A stretch of 64,000 nucleotides of DNA from positions 1,676 through 65,675 of the forward strand of contig JAAWEL010000027.1 of assembly GCA_022794255.1 (NCBI GenBank), read 5' to 3'. This stretch comes from Lachnospiraceae bacterium. GTDB taxonomy: Bacteria; Bacillota; Clostridia; Lachnospirales; Lachnospiraceae. A model generated the notes under the pieces. The model saw nothing but the letters and a program-made list of their open reading frames with translations. It was not told the DNA's origin and did no database searches. Shown here in pieces: positions 24,152 to 54,122 of the stretch. A program made the position numbers and the translations under genes. How positions within the stretch are numbered: position 1 is the first letter of the stretch; the number at the start of each line of letters is the position of its first letter.

Positions 24152-24330
24152 TGGCAAAATAAAAAATCCCAAAAAGTGTAGTTTTTGGGAATATTCTACT
24201 TATAAAATTTTATAGGCAAATATCCATAGAAAAAAGATTAAGTTTATTGATATTTTGACGATATTATGATAAAGTATAGCTGATTTGTGGCAAAATAAAA
24301 AATCCCAAAAACTACACTTTTTGGGAATAT
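24152..24330. repeat. two 43-bp direct repeats (24152-24194, 24288-24330) whose 24-bp cores (24167-24190, 24303-24326) are perfect inverted repeats
   Basis: TGGCAAAATAAAAAATCCCAAAAA-[GTGTAG or CTACAC]-TTTTTGGGAATAT; only the central hexamer differs, and the two hexamers are reverse complements. Confidence 0.95.
24238..24275 (+). promoter_or_regulatory. sigma28 (FliA/SigD)-like promoter with an overlapping sigmaA-like promoter
   Basis: TTAAGTTT-N11-GACGATAT (24238-24264) vs consensus TAAAGTTT-N11-GCCGATAW; also TTGATA-N17-TAAAGT with TG (24247-24275). Confidence 0.6.
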
Positions 24331-24397
24331 AATGAGAGAACTTGGAAATGCGTTGCAATTTATATTTATAAGCTTCAGAGGCAAAAAGAGAGGAAGA

Positions 24398-25777
24398 ATG
24401 TCATCAGATAAGATATGTAAAACGGTTCGTCAATATAATAAAGTTCCAATTTCTAAAGAAGATATGGGAAAGCTGCAGGATATAGCGATTGACTACAGCA
24501 AAGTAAAAAATTATGTCTATGACCGTTTTGGCGGAATTGGAAGTCTTTCAAAGCTGTACCCGGGATATACGATACAAAATGAGATGACTGCCACAGATCT
24601 GAGAAAAATATTGGGATTGCCAAGTGTTTATTTTTATCTTGCAATTTTTGAGGCGCTGGCTGATATCAAAGGGCAATGGAACCGGACTAAATCCAAGTTA
24701 TTGCTGCTCATAGGAACCAATGATAATTTCACATCAGAGGAAAAGCATTATCTTCGGTTTGTTTTGAAGGTTAATAATGCTTTTTCGGCAATACTTAATC
24801 AGAAGCCTATGGAACTTTCTCAGGAGATACAGAAAAAATATGAGGAGGTAGCCATTGGCATTAATAAGGAAAGGCTTCATCGCTATCTGTGCAGGCAGGT
24901 AAGAAAATATCATGTTAAACAGCATACGGACGGAGCAAAGGGATTCGCTATTACAGAACGGGCTTACCGGTATGGAAATCATGGAATCTATCTGTCCACG
25001 AAACAAAACCGAAAACGGATTTTTGTGCCATTGACAGACAACAACCAGTATAAGAGCCAGCTGTACATAAAGCTTTATCCGGACAGGGAAAGCATTGAGA
25101 TTATGGTGCCCGTTTATATGGAGCCCCGCTCCTTTGAAGAATATACCAATCAAATAGGTATTTCTATTGGCATGTTTACTATGTTGACTACCAACGATGG
25201 TCATTGCTATGGAAAAGAATTTGGAAAATATCAGACCTATTACTCAGAGTGGATTCGGAATCAGACTATAAGCTACAGCTGCAACCGGGGAGATAATCCG
25301 GGAAGAAGAAAATATTATGCAAAAAAGAAAAAACTTGAAGAACAGCTCCATGCCTATATTAATCAGGAGCTTAATCTCTTTTTTAGACAGGAGAAGCCGC
25401 AGACTATTTATATGGCTAAGCTCCCCGAGCCCCAAAAAAGTGGGGCGGTTCCCAAGATCAATAATCAGGTGACTATGTGGCAGAGAGGGTATATCCGCAG
25501 CCGTCTGATACAAAAATCCAGAGAAAAATCTGTGGAGGTTGTGGAGGTGTTGGGAAAAGACATTAGCAGAGAGTGCAGCCAATGCAGGGAGATGGGGAGT
25601 CAAAAAGACGGAATCTTTATCTGCGAACGATGTGGGTATTCAGCGGATAAAAAGCTAAATACTGCTCAAAACGTATGGAAGCGTGGAGTGGAAGGAAGGA
25701 TCATAAGAACAACAGTTTGGATGAATGCTGGTTCCAAACCAGGATTTTACCGCAAGGACCAGACAGAAGGTTCATGA
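24398..25777 (+). CDS. TnpB/Cas12f-like protein with inactivated RuvC (TldR-like), 459 aa
   Basis: RuvC-I IGISIG (D replaced by S256), RuvC-II IYMAKL (E replaced by A340), intact Zn finger CSQC...CERC, RuvC-III DKKLNTAQNV (D replaced by K419); no tnpA nearby. Confidence 0.82.
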   Translation: MSSDKICKTVRQYNKVPISKEDMGKLQDIAIDYSKVKNYVYDRFGGIGSLSKLYPGYTIQNEMTATDLRKILGLPSVYFYLAIFEALADIKGQWNRTKSKLLLLIGTNDNFTSEEKHYLRFVLKVNNAFSAILNQKPMELSQEIQKKYEEVAIGINKERLHRYLCRQVRKYHVKQHTDGAKGFAITERAYRYGNHGIYLSTKQNRKRIFVPLTDNNQYKSQLYIKLYPDRESIEIMVPVYMEPRSFEEYTNQIGISIGMFTMLTTNDGHCYGKEFGKYQTYYSEWIRNQTISYSCNRGDNPGRRKYYAKKKKLEEQLHAYINQELNLFFRQEKPQTIYMAKLPEPQKSGAVPKINNQVTMWQRGYIRSRLIQKSREKSVEVVEVLGKDISRECSQCREMGSQKDGIFICERCGYSADKKLNTAQNVWKRGVEGRIIRTTVWMNAGSKPGFYRKDQTEGS

Positions 25778-26000
25778 TATAAAAAACAAACGGCATTAGA
25801 AGGCAGGAAAAGCCTGCGCATTGGGTATGCCAAGACCTTGGGAACATCGATTCTTTTTCAAGGAGAGATGACGTAGCAGGGAGCGAAGTGAAGCTGTCCG
25901 AGCGGCTCCTTCACATCACACAAAAAGTGACCAATATGCCTTATTTTAAAAGCTATGCACAAGACAGACCAAAATTGCGGGTATAACAAAAAGAATGGAA
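25727..26000 (+). ncRNA. candidate omega/guide RNA of the TnpB-like gene
   Basis: Series of hairpins directly downstream of and overlapping the gene end, where TnpB omegaRNAs lie; boundaries uncertain. Confidence 0.4.
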
Positions 26001-26007
26001 GATAACA

Positions 26008-28566
26008 ATGAGAAGGACATACAAAAAGCAGGCAGAAGATTTTATCAAGCTGTTAGAACAGGTGCATACAGAGATAAAAAAGTCTATAGAAGCAAAAAAG
26101 TATAATACAGCCATGGAGCTTTTAGGTCAATGCCAGGAAGGCGCCATTGGGCTGGGTAATCTGATAGAGAAAGAGGAGGGAGAAGATTTTGTCACGATTC
26201 CTCTTTTACAGTCTTACTGTGAAGTTACCTATCAATTGTACAAAGGCCTGTACCAAAAGGAAGATTTGCCTGGAAACAGGGCATACAAAAATCTCAAAAA
26301 GGCTTTGATCCAGATAGAAAACAGTGTAAGAAATGATATCAAAGGACGGCTGGAAATCGTGTTTCTTCCTTATAAGGCATCCATGTGGGACAGCATGGAA
26401 AGTGTCTGGCAGGCAGCAGCAGCGGATCCGGACTGCAGCACCTATGTTGTGCCGATTCCATACTATGAGAGAAACGAAGAGGGTGTGCTGAACAAATACT
26501 GCTATGAGGGAGATCAAATGCCGGATTATGTGCCAGTGACCTCCTATAATGCCTACAATTTCAAAGATCAAATGCCAGATGTGATCTATATTCACAATCC
26601 ATACGACCAGGGGAATTATGTGACCAGTATTGACCCCAGATTTTATTCTGGTGAATTAAAAAAATGCACTTCATGTCTTGTATATATTCCCTATTATAGT
26701 ACTGCGGGTGGAATGGGCGAGGGACAAAGCCTTTGTCAGGCGTATTTTAATGTGGACCATATTGTCGTCCAGTCAAAGAAATTCATCAAATTCTTTGACC
26801 CGGTTATTCCGGAAGAAAAGTTTTTGCCCTTGGGTTCTCCCAAATTTGACCGGGTGATTCAAATGTGCAGCAATCCGCCGAAAGCGCCAGAAAGCTGGAA
26901 GAAAAAAATGGAAGGCCGGAAGGTTTATTTTTATAACACAAGCATTAACGGAATGTTGGCAGATACAAAGACCTTTCTGAAAAAAATGGAATATGTGTTC
27001 CAATGTTTTGAGAACCGGCCGGATTCCTGTCTGTTGTGGCGTCCTCATCCTCTGCTGGAATCCACCTTTGCGTCTATGAGGAAAGAGTATAAGCCCTGGT
27101 ATGACCGGCTGAAAAAGCAATTTGCAGATGCAAATCTGGGAATATACGATGACACTTCAGATATCACCAGCACAATTGCCCTGTCAGATGCTTATATCGG
27201 GGACGCAGGAACAAGTGTCACCTCTCTTTTTGGCATTGTGGGAAAACCCCTGTTTATATTCAATAACCAGATTAACACTCTTCCCCAGTCCGATGACTGG
27301 AGGGGCGAAAAGATTAATCTGGCGTTGGACGTTTGGGAAAATGACCGATACCAGATTACCCAAAATAACCAGCTGTGGTTTTCTGAAAAAAATGATTACC
27401 ACTATAAATTTTATATGGATCTGGGAACCGGATATTCGGGAGGCAGCTATTACATAAGAGCCCTGGAAATCAAAGATAAGATATATGTCCTTCCGGGAAA
27501 CGCTCAGAATCTGCTGATTATTGAAAACAAAAAAATAAGAAGGATTGATTTTAAGACAAAAATCCCACAGCCGGGAGCTTTTTACAGTTACTGGTACAAT
27601 GAAAAATATATTTTCCTGATTCCCTTTCAGTATCCGCTGCTTCTCCGGTTCAATATAGAAACAGAAGAATTGCAGGGGATAGAGGGCATCCGGCCGTTCA
27701 ATGTGCGAAATATAAATGGAGAATGGCGGGCCGGAGGTGTGGGTATATACGGCAATGAACTGGTTTTTGCCTCCCCAAAGGACAATGAATTTATCTTCAT
27801 AGATATAAATACATTGCGGGCCAGAGGGTTGTGCAGCCATTCCCATTGTAATCTTGGAACCCAGGGAATCATAAATGAAGGGGATGAGTTGTGGCTGATG
27901 CCCATGAACGGCATGACTATTACCTGTTGGAATCCAAAGACAGGACAGGTGAGAGAATATGATGATCTGCCCGGTGATTTTAAGTCTGTTCGGTGGCCAC
28001 AGGAGCAGGAATGTAGGGAACGGCCCTTTTTGAATCTGGTATTTTGGAGAGTGAGCGGGAAAGAAAATATTGTCATAGCTCCATGTTGGGGGAATATGTA
28101 TCTGACTCTGGACCGGGAGACTGGAAAAATGGAGAAATGGGAGCCGCCGGTTCCTTTTGTTAATCGTGGAAAAAACGGCTATTTTGCTGCCTCAGGTATG
28201 GGGAGTTTCTGTGTCACCTACCCACGGATGGGAAAGGCTGACTGCCGGATCTGGTATGCGCCAGAGAGAAAGCTCTATGATATCAACATTGACACAAAGG
28301 AATATAAAGAGATCGAAATCAATTTTGATTACCAGGATCTTCGGGAGCATGAGTGCGGATTTATGGAGGAATCGGAGTGGATGCAGTATTGTCTCAATGA
28401 AAGTGCATTTAACTCTCTGAAAGATTTTCTGGATGGAAGGATAACCGGCAATCCCTTTGACAGAGAAAGGCAGATCCGGGCGTTTTCAAAAATAAACGCA
28501 TCAACAGACGGGGCCTGCGGGAAGCGGATTCACCGTTTTGTAAAGGGAAGGCTGGGGGATTGCTGA
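26008..28566 (+). CDS. CDP-glycerol glycerophosphotransferase-like protein with N-terminal helical bundle and C-terminal beta-rich domain
   Basis: FLPYKASMWDS, YIHNPYD, LGSPKFD, LWRPHPL and SDAYIGD motifs. Confidence 0.75.
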   Translation: MRRTYKKQAEDFIKLLEQVHTEIKKSIEAKKYNTAMELLGQCQEGAIGLGNLIEKEEGEDFVTIPLLQSYCEVTYQLYKGLYQKEDLPGNRAYKNLKKALIQIENSVRNDIKGRLEIVFLPYKASMWDSMESVWQAAAADPDCSTYVVPIPYYERNEEGVLNKYCYEGDQMPDYVPVTSYNAYNFKDQMPDVIYIHNPYDQGNYVTSIDPRFYSGELKKCTSCLVYIPYYSTAGGMGEGQSLCQAYFNVDHIVVQSKKFIKFFDPVIPEEKFLPLGSPKFDRVIQMCSNPPKAPESWKKKMEGRKVYFYNTSINGMLADTKTFLKKMEYVFQCFENRPDSCLLWRPHPLLESTFASMRKEYKPWYDRLKKQFADANLGIYDDTSDITSTIALSDAYIGDAGTSVTSLFGIVGKPLFIFNNQINTLPQSDDWRGEKINLALDVWENDRYQITQNNQLWFSEKNDYHYKFYMDLGTGYSGGSYYIRALEIKDKIYVLPGNAQNLLIIENKKIRRIDFKTKIPQPGAFYSYWYNEKYIFLIPFQYPLLLRFNIETEELQGIEGIRPFNVRNINGEWRAGGVGIYGNELVFASPKDNEFIFIDINTLRARGLCSHSHCNLGTQGIINEGDELWLMPMNGMTITCWNPKTGQVREYDDLPGDFKSVRWPQEQECRERPFLNLVFWRVSGKENIVIAPCWGNMYLTLDRETGKMEKWEPPVPFVNRGKNGYFAASGMGSFCVTYPRMGKADCRIWYAPERKLYDINIDTKEYKEIEINFDYQDLREHECGFMEESEWMQYCLNESAFNSLKDFLDGRITGNPFDRERQIRAFSKINASTDGACGKRIHRFVKGRLGDC

Positions 28567-28669
28567 TTCATGACTCAGACTGGTTTTATACAACAAAGGA
28601 CTGCACCGCTCTAAGGCCTGAATGATCGCTGGCTTTAAAATACAGGGAGAGGAGCATTTGGGAAGGATT

Positions 28670-30004
28670 ATGACAAAGGTAATAACATATGGAACATTTG
28701 ACCTCTTCCACGAAGGTCATTACCGGCTTCTTCAAAGAGCAAAAGCGCTGGGAGATTATCTGATTGTAGGAGTGACCACAGAGGCCTATGATAAGGCACG
28801 GGGAAAGTTGAATGTGGTGGATTCTTTGATGACCCGGATTGAGAATGTGAAAAAGGCAGGCTTTGCCGATGAAGTCATCATCGAGGAGGAGCTGGGGCAG
28901 AAGATCAATGACATTAAAAAGTTTCAGATTGATATTTTTACCGTTGGCTCTGACTGGGCGGGAAGCTTTGATTATCTGATGGATTATTGTAAGGTAGTAT
29001 ATCTGGAGCGAACAAAAAACATATCCAGTACCATGCTGCGGGAGAAAAACAGCTGTATCCAGAGAATCGGGATTATAGGAACCGGGCGGATTGCACAGCG
29101 GTTTATTCCAGAGGCCAGGTTAGTCAGCGGAGTCAGTACCCAGGGAGTCTACAATCCTCATATCACGAGTGCAAGACGGTTTGCTGACAAGTGGGAAATT
29201 AATGCGTATACCGATCTGGAAGAATTTTACAGTGCAGTGGATGTGGTTTACATTGCCTCGCCTCACGAGACGCATTATGAATATATCCGGTCTGCCCTAA
29301 ACCATGGCAAACATGTCCTTTGTGAAAAGCCTATGGTGCTGAAAAAAGCGCAGGCAGAGGAGCTTTTTGAGCTGGCAAGAGAGAAAAAAAAGGTTTTGTT
29401 TGAGGGGATCAAGACAGCCTACTGCCCGGGATTTCACAAGCTTTTAGGCGTTGCCGGCAGCGGAACGGTGGGAATGATCCGGAATGTGGAGGCTTGTTTT
29501 ACAAAGCTGGAACAAGAGAACAGCCGGGAGCTGACTGCTCCGGTGTACGGGGGAAGTTTTCTGGAGTTGGGAAGCTATGTGATGCTTCCGATTCTTAAGC
29601 TTTTCGGAAAGGATTTTGAAGAGATCCGGTTTGATACCATTAAGGGAGAAAACGGGCTGGATCTTTTTACAAAAGCTTCTCTTTGTTATCCAACAGGGGT
29701 GGCTACCGCTACTTGCGGGCTGGGGGTCAAGTCGGAGGGAAGATTGTTGATTGCCGGAACAAAAGGATATATTGTGGCGGAGGCGCCCTGGTGGAAAACC
29801 TCCTATTTTGAGGTTCACTATGAAAATCCAGGGGAGGTCGACAAGTATTCGGAACGGTTTTTAGGGGACGGGCTGCGGTATGAGATCAGTGATTTTCTTT
29901 CCATGATTAACGGGAACAGCAGCAGCGAATTTAAGCTGACCCGGGGAGAGTCGGTGGCATTGGCTGGGGTGATGGAGCGGTTTATGGAGGAGAGAGAGGG
30001 ATGA
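28670..30004 (+). CDS. TagD-like cytidylyltransferase fused to a Gfo/Idh/MocA oxidoreductase
   Basis: ITYGTFDLFHEGH, GSDW and RTKNISST motifs, then GIIGTGRIA and HVLCEKP. Confidence 0.88.
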   Translation: MTKVITYGTFDLFHEGHYRLLQRAKALGDYLIVGVTTEAYDKARGKLNVVDSLMTRIENVKKAGFADEVIIEEELGQKINDIKKFQIDIFTVGSDWAGSFDYLMDYCKVVYLERTKNISSTMLREKNSCIQRIGIIGTGRIAQRFIPEARLVSGVSTQGVYNPHITSARRFADKWEINAYTDLEEFYSAVDVVYIASPHETHYEYIRSALNHGKHVLCEKPMVLKKAQAEELFELAREKKKVLFEGIKTAYCPGFHKLLGVAGSGTVGMIRNVEACFTKLEQENSRELTAPVYGGSFLELGSYVMLPILKLFGKDFEEIRFDTIKGENGLDLFTKASLCYPTGVATATCGLGVKSEGRLLIAGTKGYIVAEAPWWKTSYFEVHYENPGEVDKYSERFLGDGLRYEISDFLSMINGNSSSEFKLTRGESVALAGVMERFMEEREG

Positions 30005-30918
30005 GAGGGATGGGGTGCGGGAGTGTATCGGAAGCTTATGTTAGTCCAAAATCATCCCCCTATTTTGCTTTTAATATATGGAGCATCGAATCTGCAAAAG
30101 CGGTGCTTGACGGTTCCGCAAAAGCAGGCCGGGACGTGATTCTGCAGACCTCCATGAAAGCATTTCTAAGATTGGATAAAGAAGAGCTCCGCAGATTTGT
30201 CACCAGCTATATGCATAAAAAACAGATTCGGGCTTACCTGCATTTAGATCACTGCAAAGATCCGGATCAGATAAAAGAGGCTATAAGTCATGGCTGGGAT
30301 TCCGTGATGATCGATGCCTCCCACAAGCCATTGGAAGAGAATATTGCAATGACCAATCTTGTATGCAGGATGGCAGAAGGAACCGGGATATTAGTGGAAG
30401 CAGAGATCGGGCAGATCTTTAAGGCCGGGGATGACATCCACAATGCAGAAACAGGAATTGCCAGGATAGAAGATATTAAAACCTTTGTGAAAAACACCAG
30501 GGCCCATATTCTTGCAGCAGCAGTAGGCACATCCCATGGTTTATACAAAGGCCTGCCAAAGATTCACTATGACCTGATAGAAGAAATAGCAGCTTTTACC
30601 AATATTCCTCTGGCAATCCATGGGGGCACAGGCCTTACGGACGAGATGTTTTTAAAACTGTTATCCCATGAAAACGTTAAAAAAATCAATATTTCAACGG
30701 ATGTAAAGATGGCCTTTAGGCAGGGAATTATGGAAAGCCTTCAAAAAGGATCGATGAGCGAAGGCGGTTTTGATCCTATGAAGGTAGAAGAGGCGATCCA
30801 TGATTTTCTGGAAGAAATGGCGGTAAATAAATTGAGATTATTAAGGAAAGACGGTAACCATGAAGACAATTCTTGTTCTGAATATGGGTATGAAAAGTAT
30901 CCGGAGCATTATCTTTGA
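30001..30918 (+). CDS. class II fructose/tagatose-bisphosphate aldolase family protein
   Basis: LHLDH, SVMIDAS, VEAEIG, GTSHG, IHGGTG and KINIST motifs. Confidence 0.9.
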   Translation: MRGMGCGSVSEAYVSPKSSPYFAFNIWSIESAKAVLDGSAKAGRDVILQTSMKAFLRLDKEELRRFVTSYMHKKQIRAYLHLDHCKDPDQIKEAISHGWDSVMIDASHKPLEENIAMTNLVCRMAEGTGILVEAEIGQIFKAGDDIHNAETGIARIEDIKTFVKNTRAHILAAAVGTSHGLYKGLPKIHYDLIEEIAAFTNIPLAIHGGTGLTDEMFLKLLSHENVKKINISTDVKMAFRQGIMESLQKGSMSEGGFDPMKVEEAIHDFLEEMAVNKLRLLRKDGNHEDNSCSEYGYEKYPEHYL

Positions 30919-32392
30919 CAGCGAGGGCAATAAACTGGCCTCATTTGCAGTGCCCATAGAAACCTCCCTTACCGGCGATACCGTTACCCAGGCCCCGTCC
31001 GAGTGGTGGGAGAAGGCATGCAGGGTGATAAGGGAGTCTCTGGCAGATGCAGGGAATATTTCGGTTGACTATCTGACTGTGACCACATCTTCCTCCTGCC
31101 TGGTATGTGTGGACAGGGAAGGGGAGGCGCTTCTTCCCTGTATGATGGTATCAGACAAGAGGGCAGTGAAAGAGAGTGCTTTGCTAAAAGAGGCAAAGGC
31201 CTTTGAGAAAGTAAAGACAAGAACAGGGCTGGGGGCAGACCCGTCTCTGATGATTCCAAAAGCCTTATGGGTGAAGAGAAACCGGCCGGAAATATTGGAC
31301 CAGGTGTATCAGCTGTTATCGCCCAATGATTTTCTCATTGCGAAATTTACTGGCCGGTATGTGACCGATTATATGAATGCCCAGAAATGGCATTATGATG
31401 TGGAGAACCGCTGCTATCCCCTGGAATTATTGCAGGAGGTGGGAATCCCCCAGCAGTTTCTCCCCAAAGTGGCAGTTCCCGGCGCTTGTGTGGGAAATGT
31501 GCTGTGTGCGGCTGCAAAGAAAACAGGGCTTTCCACAAACACCCAGGTAATCGCAAGTACCTATGATGCCATATGCTCTTTTATTGGAAGCGGCGCCTTA
31601 AGTGAAGGGGAGGCAAGCGATGTTTCGGGAACTGTTACTGTGTTCCGGGCAGCCTCCCAAAAGAAGATAGAAAAGCCGTTGGACAAGATACAGCAGCTTC
31701 CTTACTATGAAGGCGGCGTCCACATCATTGGCGGTTCCAACAATTTAGGAGGCGGTTTGATCGAATGGGTAAAGCAGTGCTATTACCAGAATGAAGCGCT
31801 TCCCTATGAGCTTATGGAAAAAGATGCAGGGGAGGCATCTTTAGGAGCAGGAGGAATCATTTTCCTGCCTTATCTTTTGGGAGAGCGGGCGCCCATATGG
31901 GACAATAATGCCAGAGGGGTGTTTTTTGGATTGGAGAGAATGCACACCAGAAAGGAAATGACAAGAGCTGTTTTTGAAAGCGCAGGATTCATAGACCTGG
32001 ATATGATCGGAGCGATTGAAAAGACAGGGTTATCGGTCCATACCATCCGGCTTTCCGGGGGACTGGCCAGACTGAATCTGATTTCCCAGATTAAAGCGGA
32101 TATTACAGGGAGGGAGGTCTGGGTGCTTTCGGAATTTGAGACTACAGCCACCGGGGCGGCAATGATTGCGCTGTACGGACAAGGGGTTTATCAGTCTTTG
32201 CGGGAGGCAGTGGACCGATTCGTGCAGATCCGCATGATGATCCGGCCGAACCAGAAAAACCATGAAAAATACACAGAGCTGTATCAATTATATAAGGAGA
32301 CCTACCACACCCTAAAACCGCTGTTCCCAAAGAGAATGGAATTGACGGAACGCTTGTATGGAATAAAAAGGATTAAGATAGAAAATCTTTGA
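30860..32392 (+). CDS. FGGY-family carbohydrate kinase (xylulokinase-like)
   Basis: DKRA, SGT, FLPYLLGERAPIWD, SGGLAR and QIKADITG motifs. Confidence 0.9.
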   Translation: MKTILVLNMGMKSIRSIIFDSEGNKLASFAVPIETSLTGDTVTQAPSEWWEKACRVIRESLADAGNISVDYLTVTTSSSCLVCVDREGEALLPCMMVSDKRAVKESALLKEAKAFEKVKTRTGLGADPSLMIPKALWVKRNRPEILDQVYQLLSPNDFLIAKFTGRYVTDYMNAQKWHYDVENRCYPLELLQEVGIPQQFLPKVAVPGACVGNVLCAAAKKTGLSTNTQVIASTYDAICSFIGSGALSEGEASDVSGTVTVFRAASQKKIEKPLDKIQQLPYYEGGVHIIGGSNNLGGGLIEWVKQCYYQNEALPYELMEKDAGEASLGAGGIIFLPYLLGERAPIWDNNARGVFFGLERMHTRKEMTRAVFESAGFIDLDMIGAIEKTGLSVHTIRLSGGLARLNLISQIKADITGREVWVLSEFETTATGAAMIALYGQGVYQSLREAVDRFVQIRMMIRPNQKNHEKYTELYQLYKETYHTLKPLFPKRMELTERLYGIKRIKIENL

Positions 32393-32405
32393 TAAAGGGG
32401 AGCTT

Positions 32406-33557
32406 ATGAAACCATATCCGTTGAATATTCCCACAAAAGTTTATTTTGGAAGAGATATATGGAGAGAGGCTGTAAAAGCCCTGGAACCTTTCTTTAGAGG
32501 AAATATTATGCTTGTGACTACCGGGCGTTCCCTTACCCGCCTGGGTTATGTGGAAGAACTGGCGGAAACAATAAAAAAGTGCCCTTTGGCAGAGCGCGTG
32601 ATAATTTTTGATTCCGTCAGCGCCAATCCCAGACTTTCAGAGGTGAGAAAGGGGATTGGGTCAGGAAAAGAAAACAGGGTAAGTGTGATTCTGGGGTTTG
32701 GTGGAGGAAGCGCTTTGGATGCAGCCAAGGCCATAGCAGCCGGTATGGGGATTGAAGAGGACATCGGAGCGCTTTTTTATGGCAGGAAGGAGCCGGGAAA
32801 GAACACGCTGCCAGTGATCGCCATTCCCACAACAGCCGGAACTGGAAGTGAGCTGAGCAAAGCCGCTATTATCACGGATGAACAGACCAGGAAAAAGGGA
32901 GGAATCCGGGGCGCGGCTCTTTATCCAAAGGCTGCGATTGTGGATTCTGTATTTACAGATTCCATCCCCCTTCGTGTGACCATGGAAACAGGATTTGACG
33001 TGTTTGCCCATGGGATGGAAAGCTATCTGTCCCTGGCAGGATCTCCATACACAAGAATGCAGTCTGAGTATGGAATCCAGATTGTAGGAAAATATCTTCC
33101 GCGGCTGTTTTTTGATCTGGAGGATAAGGAGGCAAGAGACAAGTTAAGCTTTGCCAGTATGATTATGGGAATCAACTTGGGGAATGCCAGCACCTGCCTT
33201 GTACACAGGCTTCAGTATCCTTTAGGAGCCCATACGGATACCAGCCACGGAGCCGGGTTAGCTGCTCTGTTTCCAGCGTGGACAAGCTTTGAGCATAGAT
33301 ATGCGCCCCATATGGTAGAGAGGGGAGTCAGCCTGCTTTGGGGACAGGATATCTGCGGGCAGCAGGCATGTATGGAGAAAATTCGCTGTTTTATAGAAAA
33401 ACTGGAACTTCCCCTGTCTTTAAAAGCCCTGGGGGTGAAACGAGAGCTTTTGCAGGTTATGGCATCCGAGGTGACAGGAAATGTGAAAAATGATCCGGCG
33501 TCACAGGAGGAAGACATTATTATGAAATTATATACTATGTCTTTTGACGGGCATTGA
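32406..33557 (+). CDS. iron-containing alcohol dehydrogenase
   Basis: GGGSALDAAK, IPTTAGTGSE, DVFAHGME, LVH and SHG motifs. Confidence 0.92.
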   Translation: MKPYPLNIPTKVYFGRDIWREAVKALEPFFRGNIMLVTTGRSLTRLGYVEELAETIKKCPLAERVIIFDSVSANPRLSEVRKGIGSGKENRVSVILGFGGGSALDAAKAIAAGMGIEEDIGALFYGRKEPGKNTLPVIAIPTTAGTGSELSKAAIITDEQTRKKGGIRGAALYPKAAIVDSVFTDSIPLRVTMETGFDVFAHGMESYLSLAGSPYTRMQSEYGIQIVGKYLPRLFFDLEDKEARDKLSFASMIMGINLGNASTCLVHRLQYPLGAHTDTSHGAGLAALFPAWTSFEHRYAPHMVERGVSLLWGQDICGQQACMEKIRCFIEKLELPLSLKALGVKRELLQVMASEVTGNVKNDPASQEEDIIMKLYTMSFDGH

Positions 33558-33591
33558 ATGAAAAGTAAATGGAATGAGAGGAATCGGATCG

Positions 33592-34329
33592 ATGCAGGCA
33601 ATCATTATGGCTGCCGGGAAGGGCAGCAGACTGGGAAAAATAACAGAAGGAAAGCCAAAATCTTTCGCAGAAATAAAGGGAAAGAAATTGATTGAGTATA
33701 ATCTGCAGCTTTTAAAAAAGTATGGGATTGAAGATATCTTTATTGTGACAGGGTATTGTTGTGAGGCGTTTGAAAAGCTGACAGAAAATATGGAGGGAGT
33801 ACATCTGATCTACAATCCTTTTTATGAGATGATGAATGTACTTGGCTCCTTTTACATGGGAATGGATGTTCTGAAAGATGATTTTGTCTATCTTCATGCA
33901 GATACTTTGTGTGAGCCTGTTATATTTGAAAAGCTGATTCATATGGCTTCTGATGCAGACGCAGTTCTTCCCGTGGATTATGGTCCCTGCAATGAGGAGG
34001 CTATGAAGGTAAAAACCATAGCAGGGAATATTGTGCAGATCACCAAGCAGATACCGGTGGAAGAGGCAGAGGGAGAGTTTATCGGTATGGCAGCCTTTCG
34101 GAGAGAGCTGATACCGGCGCTTAAGGACAGGACAAAAAGGCTTTTGCAGGAAAAGAATTTTAACGAATATTTTGAACGTGCAGTTCAGAGGCTTATTGAC
34201 GAAGAAAATTACCGGATCAAAGCAGTTCCCACAGCAGGCGCTTTCTGGACAGAGATTGATTTTATGGAAGACTATGAAAAAGCGGTGGCGTGTATACCGG
34301 AGAGTCTGACAGGAATTTTTGAAAGGTAG
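33592..34329 (+). CDS. LicC-like NTP transferase (phosphocholine/sugar-phosphate cytidylyltransferase family)
   Basis: MAAGKGSRL...KPK, EEAMKV, GEFIG and WTEIDF motifs. Confidence 0.88.
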   Translation: MQAIIMAAGKGSRLGKITEGKPKSFAEIKGKKLIEYNLQLLKKYGIEDIFIVTGYCCEAFEKLTENMEGVHLIYNPFYEMMNVLGSFYMGMDVLKDDFVYLHADTLCEPVIFEKLIHMASDADAVLPVDYGPCNEEAMKVKTIAGNIVQITKQIPVEEAEGEFIGMAAFRRELIPALKDRTKRLLQEKNFNEYFERAVQRLIDEENYRIKAVPTAGAFWTEIDFMEDYEKAVACIPESLTGIFER

Positions 34330-34357
34330 TTTCATTCACACAAGGAAATGGCAGAAA

Positions 34358-43661: not shown

Positions 43662-43677
43662 TGGAGAAAATATAATC

Positions 43678-45006: not shown

Positions 45007-45050
45007 ATATATAAGAATCTGAAAATGAACAAGGGACAGGGAATTATTTT

Positions 45051-47309: not shown

Positions 47310-48756
47310 CAATAAGCTTAAAAATGTGAAAATATTTTTTTTTGGAGCGGGAAAGATAGGAAGGTATTGGATAAAGCAATCTAAGACTTTTGGAATGGTG
47401 CCTAAGGGAATCCTTGATAACAACAAGGATTTGTGGGGAACTGTGTGTGATGATATAGTGATTTATGATCCGGATATAATAAAGACACTCTATTTTGATT
47501 ATATTTTTGTCACTTGCAGCAGAGAGAAAGAAATAATTCAACAGCTTTTAAACATGGGAGCAGCTGAAAAAAAAATTATTACCAGTTATCATGACATTTT
47601 GAATCATTTACTGTTCTGTGCTGCAGGAAAGATGAAATTTTCGGAGAATACAGTCGATATTCATGACAAATATCAGGAAAGAAAAATTCTGTTTGATTTA
47701 TATAACGGAATGGTTTTAGGAGGCGTAGAATCATGGAGTTATGCCACGGCAAGACGGTTATATAAGAAGAATTATTGTGGAATGTATCTCACTACAGACG
47801 CGGCCGGACCGGCTGTGACAGATGAAACCTACCCAGCCTATATGCTAAAGTATTACGGAGTTGAGAAGGAAAAAGAAAAAATCGAAATGTGTGTGGAGAA
47901 GATAAAAGAGAATCTTCCATGTACAATTATATGTAATTTTCCGCAGCATATATTTTGGTCGGCATGTATTGCTAAACAACGATTTCCAGAGCAGATAAGG
48001 CTCATAGCTGTTCAGCATAGTGATGACTTCCCATATTATAGTGCGTATAGTTTATGGCAACAATACATTGACAGATGTATGGTAATCAGTTCCAGAATAA
48101 AACAGAAATTGCTTTCACACGGAATGGAGCAAATTAAAATGGATTATTTGGAATGGGATATATCTTGTAAAGAAAAGGTAGAAAGGATAATGAATGAAAA
48201 AAAAGAATGTTTGCAGATAGGATATGCAGGCAGAGTGACTGTAACACAGAAAAGAGCCGATTTGCTTATAGAATTATCCAAAAAATTGCGGAAAAAAAAT
48301 ATAGATTTCCAGATGAACATAGCAGGAACCGGAGATTACAGTGAAATTTTGGACCGGAGAATCCGAGAGGAAAATTTACAGGAATCCGTGATTTTGACAG
48401 GGTATTTGGACAGAAAAAACATTCCGGACTTTTGGAGCAGACAAGATATTATGGTAAGCTGCTCTGAATGTGAGGGCCACAGCATCTCCCAATCCGAGGC
48501 CATGGCAGAGGGCGCGGTCCCTGTCATCACAGATGTATCCGGCGCACGGGATGATGTGACAAATGGATACAATGGATATGTGGTGGATGTGGGCGATATC
48601 GATGCCCTTGCAGACAGAATCCAGGAGCTGTATCTTGATCGGGACAAACGGAATGAGATGAGTATGCGCGCTCATGATACAATCTGTAAACGGCAAAAAA
48701 ACATGGATCAGACAGTCTTTTGGGATAATTTGATAGAGAAGGTGTGGCAGGAATGA
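47302..48756 (+). CDS. GT4 glycosyltransferase with N-terminal Rossmann-like module
   Basis: GGVE, YAGRV...QKR and SECEGHSISQSEAMAEG (E-x7-E) motifs. Confidence 0.9.
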   Translation: MVSNKLKNVKIFFFGAGKIGRYWIKQSKTFGMVPKGILDNNKDLWGTVCDDIVIYDPDIIKTLYFDYIFVTCSREKEIIQQLLNMGAAEKKIITSYHDILNHLLFCAAGKMKFSENTVDIHDKYQERKILFDLYNGMVLGGVESWSYATARRLYKKNYCGMYLTTDAAGPAVTDETYPAYMLKYYGVEKEKEKIEMCVEKIKENLPCTIICNFPQHIFWSACIAKQRFPEQIRLIAVQHSDDFPYYSAYSLWQQYIDRCMVISSRIKQKLLSHGMEQIKMDYLEWDISCKEKVERIMNEKKECLQIGYAGRVTVTQKRADLLIELSKKLRKKNIDFQMNIAGTGDYSEILDRRIREENLQESVILTGYLDRKNIPDFWSRQDIMVSCSECEGHSISQSEAMAEGAVPVITDVSGARDDVTNGYNGYVVDVGDIDALADRIQELYLDRDKRNEMSMRAHDTICKRQKNMDQTVFWDNLIEKVWQE

Positions 48757-50117
48757 ATAAAAAAGTGCCAAAGGTATCCGTTATATTGCCATCCTTAAAC
48801 GTGGCAGAATACATAGAAGCGTGTATGGAAAGTGTGGTTCATCAGACTTTGCAGGATTTGGAGATGATCTGTGTCGATGCAGGTTCCACAGATGGAACAA
48901 GGGAAATCTTAGAAAGATATGCCAGGGAGGATTCCAGAATTGTGGTTTTACACAGCGACACAAAAAGTTACGGCAGGCAGGTAAACATGGGATTAGATCG
49001 TGCCACTGGTGAATATGTAGCCATTCTGGAAACAGATGATTGGATCGAGCCGGATATGTATCAATACTTGTATGACAACGGAGCAGCTGAGAGTCTGGAC
49101 TATGTAGCTTCTGATTTTGACCTGCTATATCGGCTTCAGAACGGGGCGGATTACTTGATCCGGCAACGGTTGTTTCATGGCGATAAGCAGGACTGGTATG
49201 GCCGGATATTGGATTCCGATGAGATAGCCACTCTGCGGTCAGCGGATTATGTGTTGTGGAAGGGGCTCTATAGACGGGAATTTCTCAATTCTCACCATAT
49301 AAGGCTGCATCCGTCTCCCGGAGCGGCTTTTCAGGACATGGGTTTTTTGCAGCAGGTAAAGACCTATGCGAAGCAGGCGAAATATCTGGATAAAAGCTTT
49401 TACCGGTACAGGCAGGACCGGGAGGAGGCCTCGTCAAAGGGGCTGGATGGCCTTCGATATTATGAAAATGAATTTCGGTGGATCAATGGTGAGCTTAGAT
49501 TGTGTCATCTTTTGAATCCTATTCACAGGAAATATTATTATTTTGCCATGAGTATTTCATTCATCACAAAATATGATCAGATTCTTGTAAAATTGAACGG
49601 AGATTGGCAAGATAAGAGACTTGCGGATTCCTGTGAATGGTTCAGCCGTCAGATCTCTGAGGCGGTCCGTATCGGCCTTTTGGATAAAGCCATGTATGGA
49701 AATGAGTTGTGGGAAAGGCTGATGCTTTTACTTGCCTCTCAGGAGGCTTACAGCCAGCTGGTTATGGAGCAGGAAAAGGGGAAACAGGACGGTTTGCAGA
49801 AGCTTTTGGGGAGAATAAAAAATCGTCCGGTTATGATATTCGGATGTGGAATCCGTGGAGAACGGCTGATGTTTTATTGCGACAGTAACCACATAAAAAT
49901 TCACAGTTTTTGTGATAATAATCTGGCGTTGTTTGGTAAAGAAAAGTGTGGCTTTCCTATCCTATCTCCATCTGATTTGAAAAATGAGGCAGATAGTAAG
50001 GATGGGGTGATTTTATTGTCTATGAAAATTGGCCAGGAAGAAGTATACCGACAACTGATCGCAACCGGAATTGAGGATGACCGGATTATCCAATGTCACA
50101 CTAAGGCAGAGATTTAA
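48753..50117 (+). CDS. GT2 glycosyltransferase plus Rossmann-like module
   Basis: VSVILPSLN, ILETDD and SPGAAFQD motifs. Confidence 0.9.
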   Translation: MNKKVPKVSVILPSLNVAEYIEACMESVVHQTLQDLEMICVDAGSTDGTREILERYAREDSRIVVLHSDTKSYGRQVNMGLDRATGEYVAILETDDWIEPDMYQYLYDNGAAESLDYVASDFDLLYRLQNGADYLIRQRLFHGDKQDWYGRILDSDEIATLRSADYVLWKGLYRREFLNSHHIRLHPSPGAAFQDMGFLQQVKTYAKQAKYLDKSFYRYRQDREEASSKGLDGLRYYENEFRWINGELRLCHLLNPIHRKYYYFAMSISFITKYDQILVKLNGDWQDKRLADSCEWFSRQISEAVRIGLLDKAMYGNELWERLMLLLASQEAYSQLVMEQEKGKQDGLQKLLGRIKNRPVMIFGCGIRGERLMFYCDSNHIKIHSFCDNNLALFGKEKCGFPILSPSDLKNEADSKDGVILLSMKIGQEEVYRQLIATGIEDDRIIQCHTKAEI

Positions 50118-50157
50118 AGATTCGATTGCTATCATACCTGATGATTATTTTGATTTT

Positions 50158-50202
50158 ATCTGATGCAACCGATGGGATTGTTGTACGGTGCATCAGATTT
50201 TT
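50158..50202 (+). terminator. intergenic hairpin, possible internal terminator or processing site
   Basis: atctgatgcaaccg...cggtgcatcagat followed by tttt. Confidence 0.5.
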
Positions 50203-50218
50203 CAATAGGAGGTAAGCC

Positions 50219-51583
50219 ATGCCCAAAATTTCTATTATCATGCCATCCTTAAACGTGGCAGATTATATTCGTGAATCAGTGGAAAGTGTGATCAGCCAGA
50301 CATTGACGGACATTGAGATATTATGCATTGATGCCGGTTCTACAGACGGCACTCTTCAAATTTTAGAGAAATATGCCAGGCAGGATCCAAGGATTCAGAT
50401 TATTCATTCGGACAAAAAAAGCTACGGCTATCAGATAAATCTGGGAATTGATATGGCTCTTGGCGAGTATCTTGGGATTGTGGAGACAGATGATTATATT
50501 GCGGCAAATATGTATGAGGAGCTGTATAAGACAGCTGAAGAAAGGAATTTGGATTTTGTAAAGGCAGGCTTTGATGTGTTTGTTACGCCGGGAGCAGAGG
50601 AATCGTATCATCTGAGTGTTTCTCTTCCCGATTGTAATCAGGTTATTTCATCCGAATATTTTACAGAAAGAGAGCTTTCAAGCGATATTTATATATGGAA
50701 CGGTATATATAAGCTGTCGTTTCTGCGGGAACATGGTGTCCGTCTAAATGAAAGCCCGGGGGCGGCATTTCAGGATAGTGGTTTCCGGTATTTGGCAGAC
50801 ATAAATCTGAGACGAGGAATGTTTTTAGATCAGTCTTTTTACCGGTACCGGCGGGATAATGGTTCTTCCTCTACTTATAATCCCAATTGTGTCAAATATA
50901 ATCTGGCAGAATGTAGATATTTGCGCAGACGGATCGAGGAGGATGGAATTACAGAGAGAAAAATCCGCTCCTTTATTGCCCGGGAAACAGTAATGATGGC
51001 ATTGGAGCCTTATCTGACCTTTCGGGGTGTTGGCGAACCGGATGATGGGACGAGGGAAGCGCTGGATGAGTTTCGGAGGATCATCCGGGGAGACAGGGAG
51101 GCAGGACTTCTAAGACAGGAGGAAATGTTTCCGAAGCATTGGCTGGAAATGCGGTTGTTTACGGAAAATCCGGAGGCTTTTGAGGCCTATATCACCATCT
51201 GTGCGGAGGCAAGATATGCACCGTACCGGCATTTTATCAGAAAGATGTCCGGGCAGAAGCAAATCGTGGTGTTTGGGGCCGGGAAGGTGGCTGCCTATGC
51301 CCTTTGCCTGATGCGGATGAACGGAATTGAAACGATTCAGGCTTTCTGTGACAATGACCAGACCAGATGGGGGAGCCAGTATCTGGGGTATGCGATATTG
51401 TCGCCAGAGGAAGCGCTCAGACGATATCCAAAGGCGCATTATCTGATAACTAATCGTGCCCATGGCAGAAAGATCCGGGAACAGATCGGAGGACAGGGGG
51501 TGACAGGGCAAAATGTTTCTGTGTATTCGCTTCCTTTGCTGCCTATGGAGAGTACCAATTATTTTATGAAGCTTTATGAGTAG
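50219..51583 (+). CDS. GT2 glycosyltransferase plus Rossmann-like module
   Basis: ISIIMPSLN, IVETDD and ESPGAAFQD motifs; AGGAGG RBS. Confidence 0.9.
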   Translation: MPKISIIMPSLNVADYIRESVESVISQTLTDIEILCIDAGSTDGTLQILEKYARQDPRIQIIHSDKKSYGYQINLGIDMALGEYLGIVETDDYIAANMYEELYKTAEERNLDFVKAGFDVFVTPGAEESYHLSVSLPDCNQVISSEYFTERELSSDIYIWNGIYKLSFLREHGVRLNESPGAAFQDSGFRYLADINLRRGMFLDQSFYRYRRDNGSSSTYNPNCVKYNLAECRYLRRRIEEDGITERKIRSFIARETVMMALEPYLTFRGVGEPDDGTREALDEFRRIIRGDREAGLLRQEEMFPKHWLEMRLFTENPEAFEAYITICAEARYAPYRHFIRKMSGQKQIVVFGAGKVAAYALCLMRMNGIETIQAFCDNDQTRWGSQYLGYAILSPEEALRRYPKAHYLITNRAHGRKIREQIGGQGVTGQNVSVYSLPLLPMESTNYFMKLYE

Positions 51584-51602
51584 CTGAGAGGATGGATGGA
51601 CA

Positions 51603-54023
51603 ATGATTTCAAAAAATGGCCAATGGAGCGAGTTGCATAGGAGGGCAGAGAAGCTGATATACGAACTGCCTAAGGGGCTGATCAAATGGTATGCATTTAA
51701 AAAAGGCGGACGTGCTTTGTGTATTGCAGTGGATACAAAACGGGATCAGGCATTGACAGAGGCGCTGATGGAAAGCGGGATGGAGACAGAACGGATGATA
51801 ATAAAAAATGCAGGTGATCTTGCCCCCATCTCCCCGGAAAAATACGACATCATTCTCATTGCCGATGCCATCACCCGACTTACAATACCAGAAATCGGGG
51901 GTTTATTAAAGCAGGCCCGAGAGGGGCTTAAAAAGGATGGCAGGCTTTTTGTGTGTGCAGACAACCGTTTCGGAATCCGCTATTTTTGCGGGGATAGAGA
52001 TCCGTTTACAGACCGAAATTTTGACGGTATAGAAAATTACAGACGAATCAGTGACCGGGACCGGGAAAACCAGGCGGGAAGGCTGTATGCCAGGGCGGAG
52101 CTCTCTGACCTGCTTGCTCAATCAGGCTTTACAAATCACCGGTTCTACTCCGTTTTTCCGGATATCATGTGTCCCCAGATCTTGTTTGCGGAGGATTATA
52201 TGCCCGGGGAGGAGTTAAAGATACGGATTTTCCCCCATTATCACAATCCGGATACGGTATTTTTGGAGGAGGAAAATCTGTATACATCTCTGATCCAAAA
52301 CGGCATGTTTCACCCTATGGCCAACGGATTTTTGATTGAGTGCCCGGTGGACGGGCGGTTTGCGGATGCCAATCAGATCACCGTTTCCATGGACCGGGGA
52401 AGGGAAAATGCTTTATACACCGTCATAACCCGCAGCAAAAGAGTGATGAAGCTTCCGGCTTATGAGGAAGGGAAGGGAAAGATTGAAAAGCTTTTGGAGA
52501 ACAACTGTTATCTAAAGCAGCATGGGGTGAAAATGATTGAGGCAGAGACAGAGGGGGATGCATTTGTCATGCCTTATGTGGAAGGAATGCCGCTGGCTAA
52601 GTATTTCCGCCACCTGGCATTGACAGACCGGCCAGAGTTTTTCCGGCAGTTTGACAAATTGTGGAAGCTGATTTTGTCATCCTCGGATCAGGCTTCTTAT
52701 GATAATGTGGATTGGGAACACTTCAACCCCTGGTGGGATGAGGGAAGGGATGAGAAGACGAAAAGCAGAATTGACAGAAGTCAATGGAGAAAGGTTGCCT
52801 TTGGCACAGAGGAGGAGCGGGAAAATCTTGGACCGGTGTTGGAGCGCGGATATCTGGATTTGGTGCTGATCAATGGCTTTGCGATAAAGGATGATTTTGT
52901 ATTTTATGATCAGGAGGTGTATGTGGAGAATCTGCCTGCGAAGGCGATTATGCTGAGGAATATTGATTTTCTCTATCACGGGGATGCACAGCTTCAGAAG
53001 GCTCTGCCAAGGGCGGAGCTTTTAGAGCGGTATGGAATGGAGAAATATCAGGAAATTTACTCGGCCCACATTGGCTATTTTCTTACAAAGCTGCGCAATG
53101 ATGACCTTTTAAGGGATTATCATGAGGCTCACAGGCGCAATGACGAGATCGTCCACTCTAATCGCCAGAGGATGAATTATTCAGCCGGAGAGTATCAGCG
53201 GTTGTTTGTTGATATTTTTAAGAATATGGATAACAGGAAAATATATCTTTTCGGCTCGGGAAAATTTACGAAAAAATTTCTGGCCCTATATAAGGAAGAT
53301 TATGAGATAGCAGGGATCTTGGACAATGACCAGTCAAAATGGGAAAGTGTTATGGAAGGGATTCGGGTTACATCTCCAGAGGTTTTAAAGGGACTGGATG
53401 GCAGCACGTATAAGGTGATTATCTGTATCAAAAATTATACAGGGGTGTTAAGGCAGGTGAGAGGGCTTGGAGCCATAAATATCGGCATTTATGACACCAA
53501 TATGGAATATCCCGGGAGGCAGAGAATGGCGCTTGTTCTGGAAGGGAAGGAGACGAGAGGGGAAGGAAAGACGGCAGGGAAAAAAACAGAGAAAAAGAAG
53601 TATCATGTGGGGTATGTGGCAGGGGTGTTTGATTTGTTTCACATTGGCCATTTGAATCTGCTGCGGCGGGCAAAAGAACAGTGTGACTATCTGATTGCCG
53701 GGGTGGTGACGGATGAGGGAGTGAGAAAGTTTAAAAATACGGAAAGCTTCATTCCCTTTAAGGAGCGCTTAGAGATTGTGGAGGCCTGCAAATATGTGGA
53801 TCAGGCAGTGGGGATACCCCTGGAATTTTATGACACCAAGGATGCTTATCTGAAATTCCAGTTTGATGTGCAGTTTTCGGGAAGTGATTATTCAGAGGAT
53901 CCGGTGTGGCAGAAAAAACGGGAATTTTTGCGGGAGCATGGGGCTGAGTTGGTGTTCTTTCCTTACACAGAGAGCACCAGTTCCACCAATATTAAAGCGA
54001 TGATTGAAAGAAAGCTGATGTGA
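51603..54023 (+). CDS. multidomain protein: degenerate SAM-methyltransferase-like, kinase-like, Rossmann module and TagD-like cytidylyltransferase
   Basis: LKKDGRLF..DNRFGIRYFCG; VMKL..MPYVEG..DLVLIN..YDQE; FGSGKF; GVFDLFHIGH, GSDY and YTESTSST. Confidence 0.75.
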   Translation: MISKNGQWSELHRRAEKLIYELPKGLIKWYAFKKGGRALCIAVDTKRDQALTEALMESGMETERMIIKNAGDLAPISPEKYDIILIADAITRLTIPEIGGLLKQAREGLKKDGRLFVCADNRFGIRYFCGDRDPFTDRNFDGIENYRRISDRDRENQAGRLYARAELSDLLAQSGFTNHRFYSVFPDIMCPQILFAEDYMPGEELKIRIFPHYHNPDTVFLEEENLYTSLIQNGMFHPMANGFLIECPVDGRFADANQITVSMDRGRENALYTVITRSKRVMKLPAYEEGKGKIEKLLENNCYLKQHGVKMIEAETEGDAFVMPYVEGMPLAKYFRHLALTDRPEFFRQFDKLWKLILSSSDQASYDNVDWEHFNPWWDEGRDEKTKSRIDRSQWRKVAFGTEEERENLGPVLERGYLDLVLINGFAIKDDFVFYDQEVYVENLPAKAIMLRNIDFLYHGDAQLQKALPRAELLERYGMEKYQEIYSAHIGYFLTKLRNDDLLRDYHEAHRRNDEIVHSNRQRMNYSAGEYQRLFVDIFKNMDNRKIYLFGSGKFTKKFLALYKEDYEIAGILDNDQSKWESVMEGIRVTSPEVLKGLDGSTYKVIICIKNYTGVLRQVRGLGAINIGIYDTNMEYPGRQRMALVLEGKETRGEGKTAGKKTEKKKYHVGYVAGVFDLFHIGHLNLLRRAKEQCDYLIAGVVTDEGVRKFKNTESFIPFKERLEIVEACKYVDQAVGIPLEFYDTKDAYLKFQFDVQFSGSDYSEDPVWQKKREFLREHGAELVFFPYTESTSSTNIKAMIERKLM

Positions 54024-54084
54024 CAGGAAGGATTAGGCGCCAGGGTGGGAGCTTGAATGGCTTGTTTGTAAGAGGAGATATAGT

Positions 54085-54122
54085 AGGCCGGGAATCTGAA
54101 AAACAGGTTTCCGGCTTTTTTT
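54085..54122 (+). terminator. terminator at the end of the island
   Basis: aggccgggaatctg-aaaaa-caggtttccggctttttt. Confidence 0.8.

Follow-up and report, generated by a model that had tools for sequence, protein, structure and literature searches.

An invertible sigma28-type promoter, a nuclease-dead TnpB-like protein and a structured RNA at the head of a glycan-enzyme island in Lachnospiraceae

A 64,000-nt window of DNA from a Lachnospiraceae bacterium (C67:1676-65675 of an 87%-complete, 3.4-Mb draft genome; "the window" denotes this whole analysed stretch) carries a glycan-enzyme island headed by an invertible promoter. The island occupies 24152-54127, lies entirely on the + strand and consists, in order, of a promoter switch, the gene for a nuclease-dead TnpB-like protein (dTnpB), a structured RNA, 19 open reading frames (ORFs) and a terminator. 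The promoter segment of about 112 bp (24191-24302) inverts between two 24-bp palindromic sites, and the layout is repeated in dozens of diverged loci, far beyond chance. The island is best read as the setting of a TldR-like clade, that is, of TnpB-derived regulators, embedded in a phase-variation circuit, a setting previously undescribed for these proteins.

The following mechanism is proposed. In the ON orientation, sigma28 would transcribe one long operon, the first product of which would be a domesticated, RuvC-dead TnpB binding the scaffold RNA encoded just downstream. The complex, made in ON cells only, would act as an RNA-guided DNA-binding regulator that coordinates other glycan loci or flagellar genes with the state of the switch, and the 19 soluble enzymes would assemble a glycan rich in phosphodiesters on an acceptor in the cytoplasm, most likely flagellin awaiting export. 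We lean slightly towards this picture of a phase-variable surface-glycan module with dTnpB and its RNA as a TldR-like regulator, and put the chances that this regulator acts in trans and specifically in the ON state at about even.

An earlier reading of the same DNA, made without database searches (hereafter the original prediction), had described a co-directional 30-kb block with these elements, all of which were recovered at or near the same coordinates. New in the present analysis are the direct evidence of inversion, the phyletic link between sigma28 and flagellin, the IS607 origin of the protein, an orthologue of the recombinase, the negative target searches and the loci that lack the dTnpB-RNA module. 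Public sequencing runs containing this stretch were mouse-gut metagenomes, and its nearest relatives were Lachnospiraceae metagenome-assembled genomes and isolates. The clade is common in mouse-gut Lachnospiraceae, including the cultured Sporofaciens musculi, Lachnospiraceae bacterium M18-1 and Dorea sp. 5-2.

The invertible promoter and its candidate recombinase

The switch is bounded by 43-nt direct repeats (24152-24194 and 24288-24330; 91% identical) whose cores form a perfect 24-bp inverted repeat. The left copy holds the hix-like recombination site IRL (24167-24190), and the right copy holds IRR (24303-24326), the exact reverse complement of IRL; each arm is itself palindromic. The segment between them, which is in the ON orientation in the window, contains a promoter on the + strand with the -35 box TTAAGTTT (24238-24245), an 11-nt spacer and the -10 box GACGATAT (24257-24264). 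Compared with the sigma28 consensus TAAAGTTT-N11-GCCGATAA, it shows three mismatches and exact spacing; with the Bacillus form GCCGATAT as reference, each box has a single mismatch. The flagellin promoters of this genome have similar -10 boxes (GCCGATAT or GACGATAT), and a FliA/WhiG sigma factor gene is present at C70:5331-5990 (219.5 bits; cut-off 189.6). The earlier proposal of a sigma28-type promoter was supported.

Inversion was seen directly in public contigs, which bears out the earlier suggestion of a switchable island. The joints lie at 24166|24326 and 24190/24191. Logan contigs of run X1, possibly the sample from which the window originated, had the junctions 24166-24326 and 24167-24327, each between positions on opposite strands. 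One 723-nt contig from run X3, which belongs to another study, consisted of the left flank, the inverted 24191-24302 segment and the right flank. The switch was therefore ON in the window assembly and OFF in the X1 and X3 contigs.

Relatives with 46-73% protein identity have a pair of palindromic sites of about 24-30 nt, located 75-210 nt upstream of the aligned gene start and 93-130 nt apart; the sequence of these sites has diverged and their dyad symmetry has been kept. Of the 35 loci with clear repeat pairs (window included), 9 had a sigma28-type promoter in the ON orientation and 14 had one that was OFF; for sigmaA-type promoters the figures were 2 ON and 5 OFF, and 5 loci were unclear. 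The sigma28 motif was scored in 32 relatives and, besides the window, was OFF in 14 and ON in 8 with strict pairs, while 9 had no strict pair. All six switch-bearing loci of the S. musculi WCA-9-b2 assembly (L106-L111) were OFF. Three of the S. musculi switch loci lie within 57 kb (2.158-2.216 Mb).

The sites are palindromes of 24-26 bp with centres such as GTGTAG or GTATAC, and in many loci the centre is palindromic (TA). We take them to resemble hix sites, for which a palindromic TA centre is presumably unusual. In Hin/hix-type switches, two half-sites of about 12 bp flank a 2-bp core, and an enhancer with Fis is required. Read on the minus strand, both site hairpins are terminator-like, a hairpin being followed by a T run; in the OFF state they would be expected to stop leftward transcripts.

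Directly upstream of the switch, 12 of 72 loci encode a serine recombinase of about 200 aa with a Resolvase domain. These 12 copies are 63-76% identical to the one at L006:7055-7681, and their catalytic serine is N-terminal, as in the Hin/resolvase layout. An orthologue with 75% identity is encoded at C11:85469-86059 of this genome; no repeat pair was found beside it, and the draft assembly yielded no further strong hix-like pair. Because recombinases of this type adjoin the switch in relatives, a shared, trans-acting invertase of the C11 type is the likely enzyme flipping it. Just upstream of the switch in the window, a 135-aa ORF (23566-23973, +) very weakly resembles the N-terminal portion of XerC/XerD tyrosine recombinases (E 0.006-0.01, far under the cut-offs); it could be a remnant, or the likeness could be due to chance.

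The dead TnpB, its RNA and their possible targets

dTnpB (24398-25777, +; 459 aa) matched only the Cas12f1-like TNB zinc-ribbon domain in Pfam (E 1.4e-7) and reached 30 bits against a cut-off of 100 for NCBIfam guided_TnpB. An AlphaFold2 model built on 46 homologues was confident (pLDDT 88.5), and its best Foldseek matches were AsCas12f, ISFba1 TnpB and ISDra2 TnpB (E 1e-10 to 1e-12), all of them Cas12f/TnpB ribonucleoproteins. Judged from this model, the protein has the TnpB/Cas12f fold (WED-REC-RuvC-TNB). Its CxxC...CxxC zinc finger is intact. In the window the frame reads 22 codons beyond the usual stop into the RNA gene (25712-25777), homologues having 437 aa, and this read-through tail is disordered in the model (pLDDT <50).

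Homologues were collected by an exhaustive HMMER search (555 matches at E<=1e-3, of which 73 at E<=1e-30), and 70 representatives were aligned; more than 1,600 public proteins were matched to dTnpB. All three RuvC residues are replaced (S256/A340/K419), as opposed to D/E/D in distant relatives (<=32% identity), which retain GxDKG, xxEDL and DADxNAA. In the close clade the three columns hold S/A/V, A/P/T and K/R. In a maximum-likelihood tree, from which four fragmentary rows were excluded, the 16 fully dead rows and one misaligned fragment made up one side of a branch with 100/100 support, which indicates a single loss of activity. The intact relative P0176 is encoded directly behind a protein with MerR-type helix-turn-helix and resolvase domains, the IS607-type arrangement. 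Judged by these sequence comparisons, the dead clade probably arose a single time, from proteins related to IS607-type TnpB. Derivation from the csrA/flagellin-associated TldR clade, one of the options in the original prediction, was not supported, none of the relatives inspected, three distant dead ones included, lying beside csrA or flagellin. By homology, dTnpB should associate with the scaffold RNA and, directed by a guide at the 3' end, bind DNA without cutting.

Across 71 loci, conservation was higher in a stretch at about 25712-25945 (+) than in the last part of the coding region. RNAalifold predicted 43 base pairs from 30 diverse loci, 32 of them with compensatory changes, and the 3' motif CCAATATGCCTTATT (25931-25945) was present in 66 of 72 loci. 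No family was matched in an Rfam scan of 23900-26200 with E up to 1. The position, size and sharp 3' boundary of the RNA resemble those of an omega-RNA or TldR guide-RNA scaffold as described in bioRxiv 10.1101/2023.11.30.569447. The RuvC-dead TnpB-like gene of the original prediction was borne out, and it has a structured RNA of its own; the gap that the prediction had called hairpin-rich and non-coding is more than hairpin-rich, as it contains a conserved, covarying RNA.

The exact end of the scaffold could differ from this boundary. In dead relatives farther from the main clade the inner motifs of the scaffold persist and divergence sets in after ...CCAA; the true boundary between scaffold and guide could therefore lie 11 nt before the conservation boundary of the main clade. 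Three S. musculi loci (L106-L108) and L044 have a second copy of the 3' motif (..TATGTGCCTTATT) after a short spacer, 31-76 nt past the scaffold end. This repeat-spacer-repeat appearance, seen in 4 of 72 loci, could represent a partial duplication or a second guide unit. Two contigs from the RNA-library run X17, a 218-nt contig identical to 24409-24626 and a 59-nt piece of a relative's scaffold, were not taken as evidence of transcription.

In every inspected neighbourhood dTnpB heads a co-directional block of glycan enzymes, the enzyme content varying by locus. A homologue of the 852-aa protein encoded next in the window is the recurrent partner, being found downstream in 46 of 73 loci and as the first gene in 35. 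Isolates carry 2-7 copies of the module (7 in S. musculi, 5 in Dorea sp. 5-2 and 4 in M18-1), and in a family sample of one genome per genus dTnpB was present in 7 of 200 other genera. The link between a dead TnpB and glycan operons is accordingly conserved and no local accident.

These data also bear on whether dTnpB is an inert IS607-type relic that landed by chance between promoter and operon. Its homologues are annotated as 'transposase' in public records, and the catalytic site is dead, as such a relic would have it. However, purifying selection acts on the dead clade (frames open in 74 of 74; pairwise dN/dS, the ratio of nonsynonymous to synonymous substitution rates, 0.08-0.2), the RNA covaries, and the position of the gene is constant in loci that are 46-73% identical and differ in their enzyme sets. 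Neither a transposase nor transposon ends accompany it, no tnpA was seen in the inspected loci, and dTnpB is single-copy in this genome. Random contexts with insertion-sequence ends, or neutral decay, would have refuted the original prediction; the homologues instead consistently head glycan operons. We regard the relic as scarcely credible.

Loci without the module help to separate action in trans from action in cis. At C7:43660-45113 (= L100:3660-5114) of this genome, a second copy of the TTAAGTTT-N11-GACGATAT segment has the right hix-like site only; the promoter is followed directly by a paralogue of the 852-aa gene, with neither dTnpB nor scaffold RNA, and the contig ends inside that gene. 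S. musculi locus L113 (G211:C2:1244500-1247500, at about 1230-1500) has an internal deletion of most of the gene and scaffold, which leaves the right recombination site, the leader and about 55 dTnpB codons fused directly to the scaffold 3' motif. As both loci keep the promoter or site in the absence of the module, an obligatory role in cis is disfavoured; together with the 2-7 copies per isolate, they favour action in trans.

A role in cis, in which dTnpB-RNA would set the level of the glycan enzymes relative to the strong flagellar promoter, nevertheless has points on its side. The module invariably lies between promoter and first enzyme, no + strand terminator was found in 24330-26300, which includes the stretch between RNA and enzymes, no trans target was found, and in many loci the next gene begins 21-40 nt past the scaffold. 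The complex could occlude the ribosome-binding site of the first gene, act on the long transcript by stabilising or processing it, or bind the DNA of its own locus immediately downstream. The last route would need the conserved CTTAT at the scaffold end as adjacent motif, an idea that rests on likeness to the GTTAT reported for fliC-type TldRs. Since loci such as C7 and L113 retain promoter or switch and enzymes and evidently do not require the module in cis, we hold this role to be rather unlikely.

It is quite improbable that dTnpB-RNA instead controls inversion by binding at or near the recombination sites and biasing or locking the switch, much as Cas12k directs a transposase. The module is always right beside the switch, and a distant dead relative lies behind a tyrosine recombinase. 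Against this, complementarity between the variable tail after the scaffold and the upstream switch of the same locus did not exceed that of controls (means of 6.7 nt and 6.5 nt, respectively), and the module-less loci still have switch sites. The relative in question, P0126 (40% identical; L105:570-3177), stands directly behind a 375-aa recombinase of the tyrosine, not the serine, type.

The searches for guide targets weigh against the proposed regulator in trans. The tail at the guide position (25946-26007, +), which also carries the ribosome-binding site of the next gene, had no BLAST match of >=16 nt in the rest of this 87%-complete genome, the best matches there being 17 nt with one mismatch, AT-rich and at E=3. 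A search for TTATT followed by the tail, mismatches allowed, gave no convincing target. The tail of S. musculi locus L036 likewise had no match of >=16 nt in the whole near-complete S. musculi genome, the only long match of tails against paralogous loci in nine genomes was a duplicated locus, and the seven S. musculi loci showed no excess complementarity to each other, just as the tail showed none to its own switch. Because the ribosome-binding site and start codon of the next gene follow so closely in many loci, there is little room for an independent guide. The original prediction suggested that the dead TnpB could repress a resident flagellin or a competing glycan locus; no guide target was found at either, and a repressor role is something we infer.

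Several candidate matches were rejected. The conserved 3' motif, tried as a conserved guide, gave chance-like matches, including one near-match inside the coding region of the C7 paralogue. The tail has 8 identical nt in common with the spacer of a flagellin promoter on C64, which is within chance. Of two extra S. musculi matches, L113 is the remnant of the deleted locus, whereas the match at L114 lies within a gene and is due to chance.

With the adjacent motif of the clade unknown, these searches would have missed guides as short as the 9-11 nt reported for oppF-type TldRs. With guides of about that length reading promoter DNA, the trans regulator that we favour could be a cross-regulator imposing hierarchy or mutual exclusion among up to seven flagellar-glycan loci that flip independently within one cell, or between a glycan locus and particular flagellin genes. 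This more specific proposal is tentative, with a chance well short of even. If true, phase-variation circuits would gain their first RNA-guided component, one that matches FljA and UpxZ in function.

The glycan enzymes and their presumed acceptor

After a 230-nt gap 3' of the dTnpB ORF, 19 ORFs (26008-54023) with glycan or polyol-phosphate domains follow. They include three cytidylyl/nucleotidyl-transferases, two TagF-like transferases, RgpF, DUF5672, GT11, GT4 and six GT2 enzymes, about nine being glycosyltransferases (GT). The first (26008-28566, +) encodes the soluble 852-aa protein, the conserved first enzyme of these operons and a distant relative of TagF-type polyol-phosphate transferases: 73 of its 100 Atlas neighbours are in clusters carrying PF04464 (TagF-type Glyphos_transf). 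It is followed by a putative donor-synthesis block (28622-35584, +) comprising a cytidylyltransferase-GFO oxidoreductase fusion, a class II aldolase, an FGGY kinase, an Fe-alcohol dehydrogenase, an IspD-like nucleotidyltransferase and, according to Pfam, a Glyphos_transf enzyme. The aldolase, kinase and dehydrogenase could form a set making a polyol phosphate.

The next cassette (36024-47309, +) encodes a protein of unknown family, DUF5672, RgpF, three GT2, GT11 and a HAD/PglD_N-like protein of 752 aa. The content of guanine and cytosine (GC) falls from about 45% to 28-35% here (window 36000-47000), after a 439-nt gap (35585-36023), and the cassette looks like a separately acquired block. The last part (47233-54023, +) encodes GT4, two GT2 and an 806-aa protein whose C-terminal domain resembles glycerol-3-phosphate cytidylyltransferase. 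A strong intrinsic terminator (54085-54127, +) closes the unit; its 14-pair stem spans 54085-54117 and precedes a T run. Together with the lack of a + strand terminator in 24330-26300, it supports reading the island as a single transcript.

A clear membrane segment was found in none of the 19 island proteins, and no priming transferase, flippase, polymerase or ATP-binding cassette (ABC) exporter was found among them, which points to assembly on a soluble cytoplasmic acceptor. Flagellin genes were present in 50 of 50 carrier genomes, as compared with 105 of 200 genomes in the family sample, although these carriers are kin and not independent; at the level of genera, 7 of the 7 positive ones have flagellin. 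In Clostridioides difficile, FtaD is a TagF-like phosphotransferase that decorates flagellin bearing N-acetylglucosamine from a donor activated with cytidine diphosphate (CDP) (bioRxiv 10.64898/2026.02.12.704994). On the strength of the sigma28-type promoter, these distributions and the FtaD precedent, flagellin is the most likely acceptor. For the flagellin or protein glycosylation put forward in the original prediction, the cytoplasmic nature of the enzymes, the distribution and the precedent lend indirect support to the flagellar link, and flagellin itself as acceptor is still inferred.

Other observations weigh against flagellin. The three flagellin genes of the genome are on other contigs (C64 and C54), so that the island is not adjacent to them; no Maf-type or other known flagellin glycosyltransferase family was recognised among the island proteins; and the promoter is of the sigmaA type instead of sigma28 in 7 of the 35 clear-pair loci, about a fifth. 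The glycan might then be a teichoic-acid-like or other surface polymer, or decorate another protein, with sigma28 merely coupling its synthesis to motility. TagF-like, RgpF and cytidylyltransferase enzymes are typical of wall polymers, and the neighbours of locus L002 are large repeat proteins with faint-to-weak choline-binding and He_PIG Pfam matches, probably surface proteins. However, the machinery for priming and export is missing, every carrier genome tested has flagellin genes, and a TagF-like enzyme acting on a flagellin glycan has been published. We consider an acceptor other than flagellin the less probable of the two.

Immediately upstream of the island, the minus strand (22284-23487) encodes a holin of the phage type (PF05105) together with a small protein that has weak, sub-cut-off BclA_C/collagen-repeat Pfam matches.

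Comparison with known systems

In Salmonella, the serine invertase Hin flips a promoter between two short palindromic hix sites, and the ON operon (fljBA) encodes a surface antigen together with FljA, the silencer of the alternative antigen. The island shares with this system an invertible promoter and an ON operon with a surface-antigen function (presumed for the island), and its regulator, acting as proposed, would parallel FljA. It differs in that the recombinase is usually encoded outside a very short segment (~110 bp), the cargo consists of glycan enzymes and not flagellin, and the putative regulator is RNA-guided. In Bacteroides capsule loci, promoters are inverted by Mpi, and the first genes encode UpxY and UpxZ, a NusG-like antiterminator and its inhibitor. 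Several glycan loci per genome, invertible promoters, a shared serine recombinase and regulatory genes in first position (the last two presumed for the island) are common to both; the loci described here occur in another phylum, encode cytoplasmic enzymes without export machinery, and have a dead TnpB and its RNA first. PMC11868660 cites the Hin-hix mechanism and lists a reference on Mpi.

The pathway for the Type A flagellin glycan of C. difficile (FgtA, FtaABCD) resembles the island in the decoration of flagellin in the cytoplasm and in CDP-activated donors (both presumed for the island), and in a TagF-like phosphotransferase. The island is much larger (19 genes), is not adjacent to fliC and has a phase-variable switch of its own. 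With the IS607-family TnpB proteins and their omega-RNA, dTnpB shares the fold, and its nearest intact relatives have D/E/D, one of them behind an IS607-type serine transposase. Here, in contrast, the triad is lost, no transposase is present, the chromosomal position is fixed and the 3' end of the RNA abuts a host gene. The dCas12f-sigmaE systems of Bacteroidetes (PMC13472631) likewise combine a nuclease-dead, miniature Cas12f/TnpB fold with transcription control and an alternative sigma factor. At the loci described here there is neither an adjacent sigma gene nor a CRISPR array, and sigma28 drives the promoter and is not known as a partner of the protein.

Were the dTnpB-RNA complex to regulate other loci, the circuit of invertase, flippable flagellar promoter, dead TnpB with RNA, and variable glycan would link stochastic DNA inversion to RNA-guided gene control. 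If true, this would help to explain how gut commensals vary the sugar coat of their flagella, a major target of host immunity and phages. The clade is predicted to supply compact natural DNA-binding proteins with fixed guides, and the invertible sigma28 glycan switch in Firmicutes is a useful finding even should the regulatory role fail. The TldRs are examples of transposon nucleases that bacteria have turned into programmable transcription factors, and for most of their clades no role is known.

In full-text literature searches, no paper was found in which TnpB or TldR is connected with invertible promoters, with glycan loci or with Lachnospiraceae. The TldRs themselves, with their fliC-, oppF- and csrA/flagellin-associated clades (Wiegand et al., bioRxiv 10.1101/2023.11.30.569447; Xiao et al., bioRxiv 10.64898/2026.09.22.753285), have in common with dTnpB the dead RuvC triad, the absence of a transposase, a scaffold RNA directly downstream and a link to flagellar sigma28. 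Of the properties by which a TldR is recognised, the fold, a dead triad under selection, the loss of transposon context and a conserved scaffold were all found, and a guide-target pair was not identified; fliC, oppF and csrA were absent from the neighbourhoods of the inspected loci. The clade described here, by contrast, is independent, related to IS607-type TnpB and about 437-459 aa in length, and it stands behind an invertible promoter, heading glycan operons in up to seven copies per genome.

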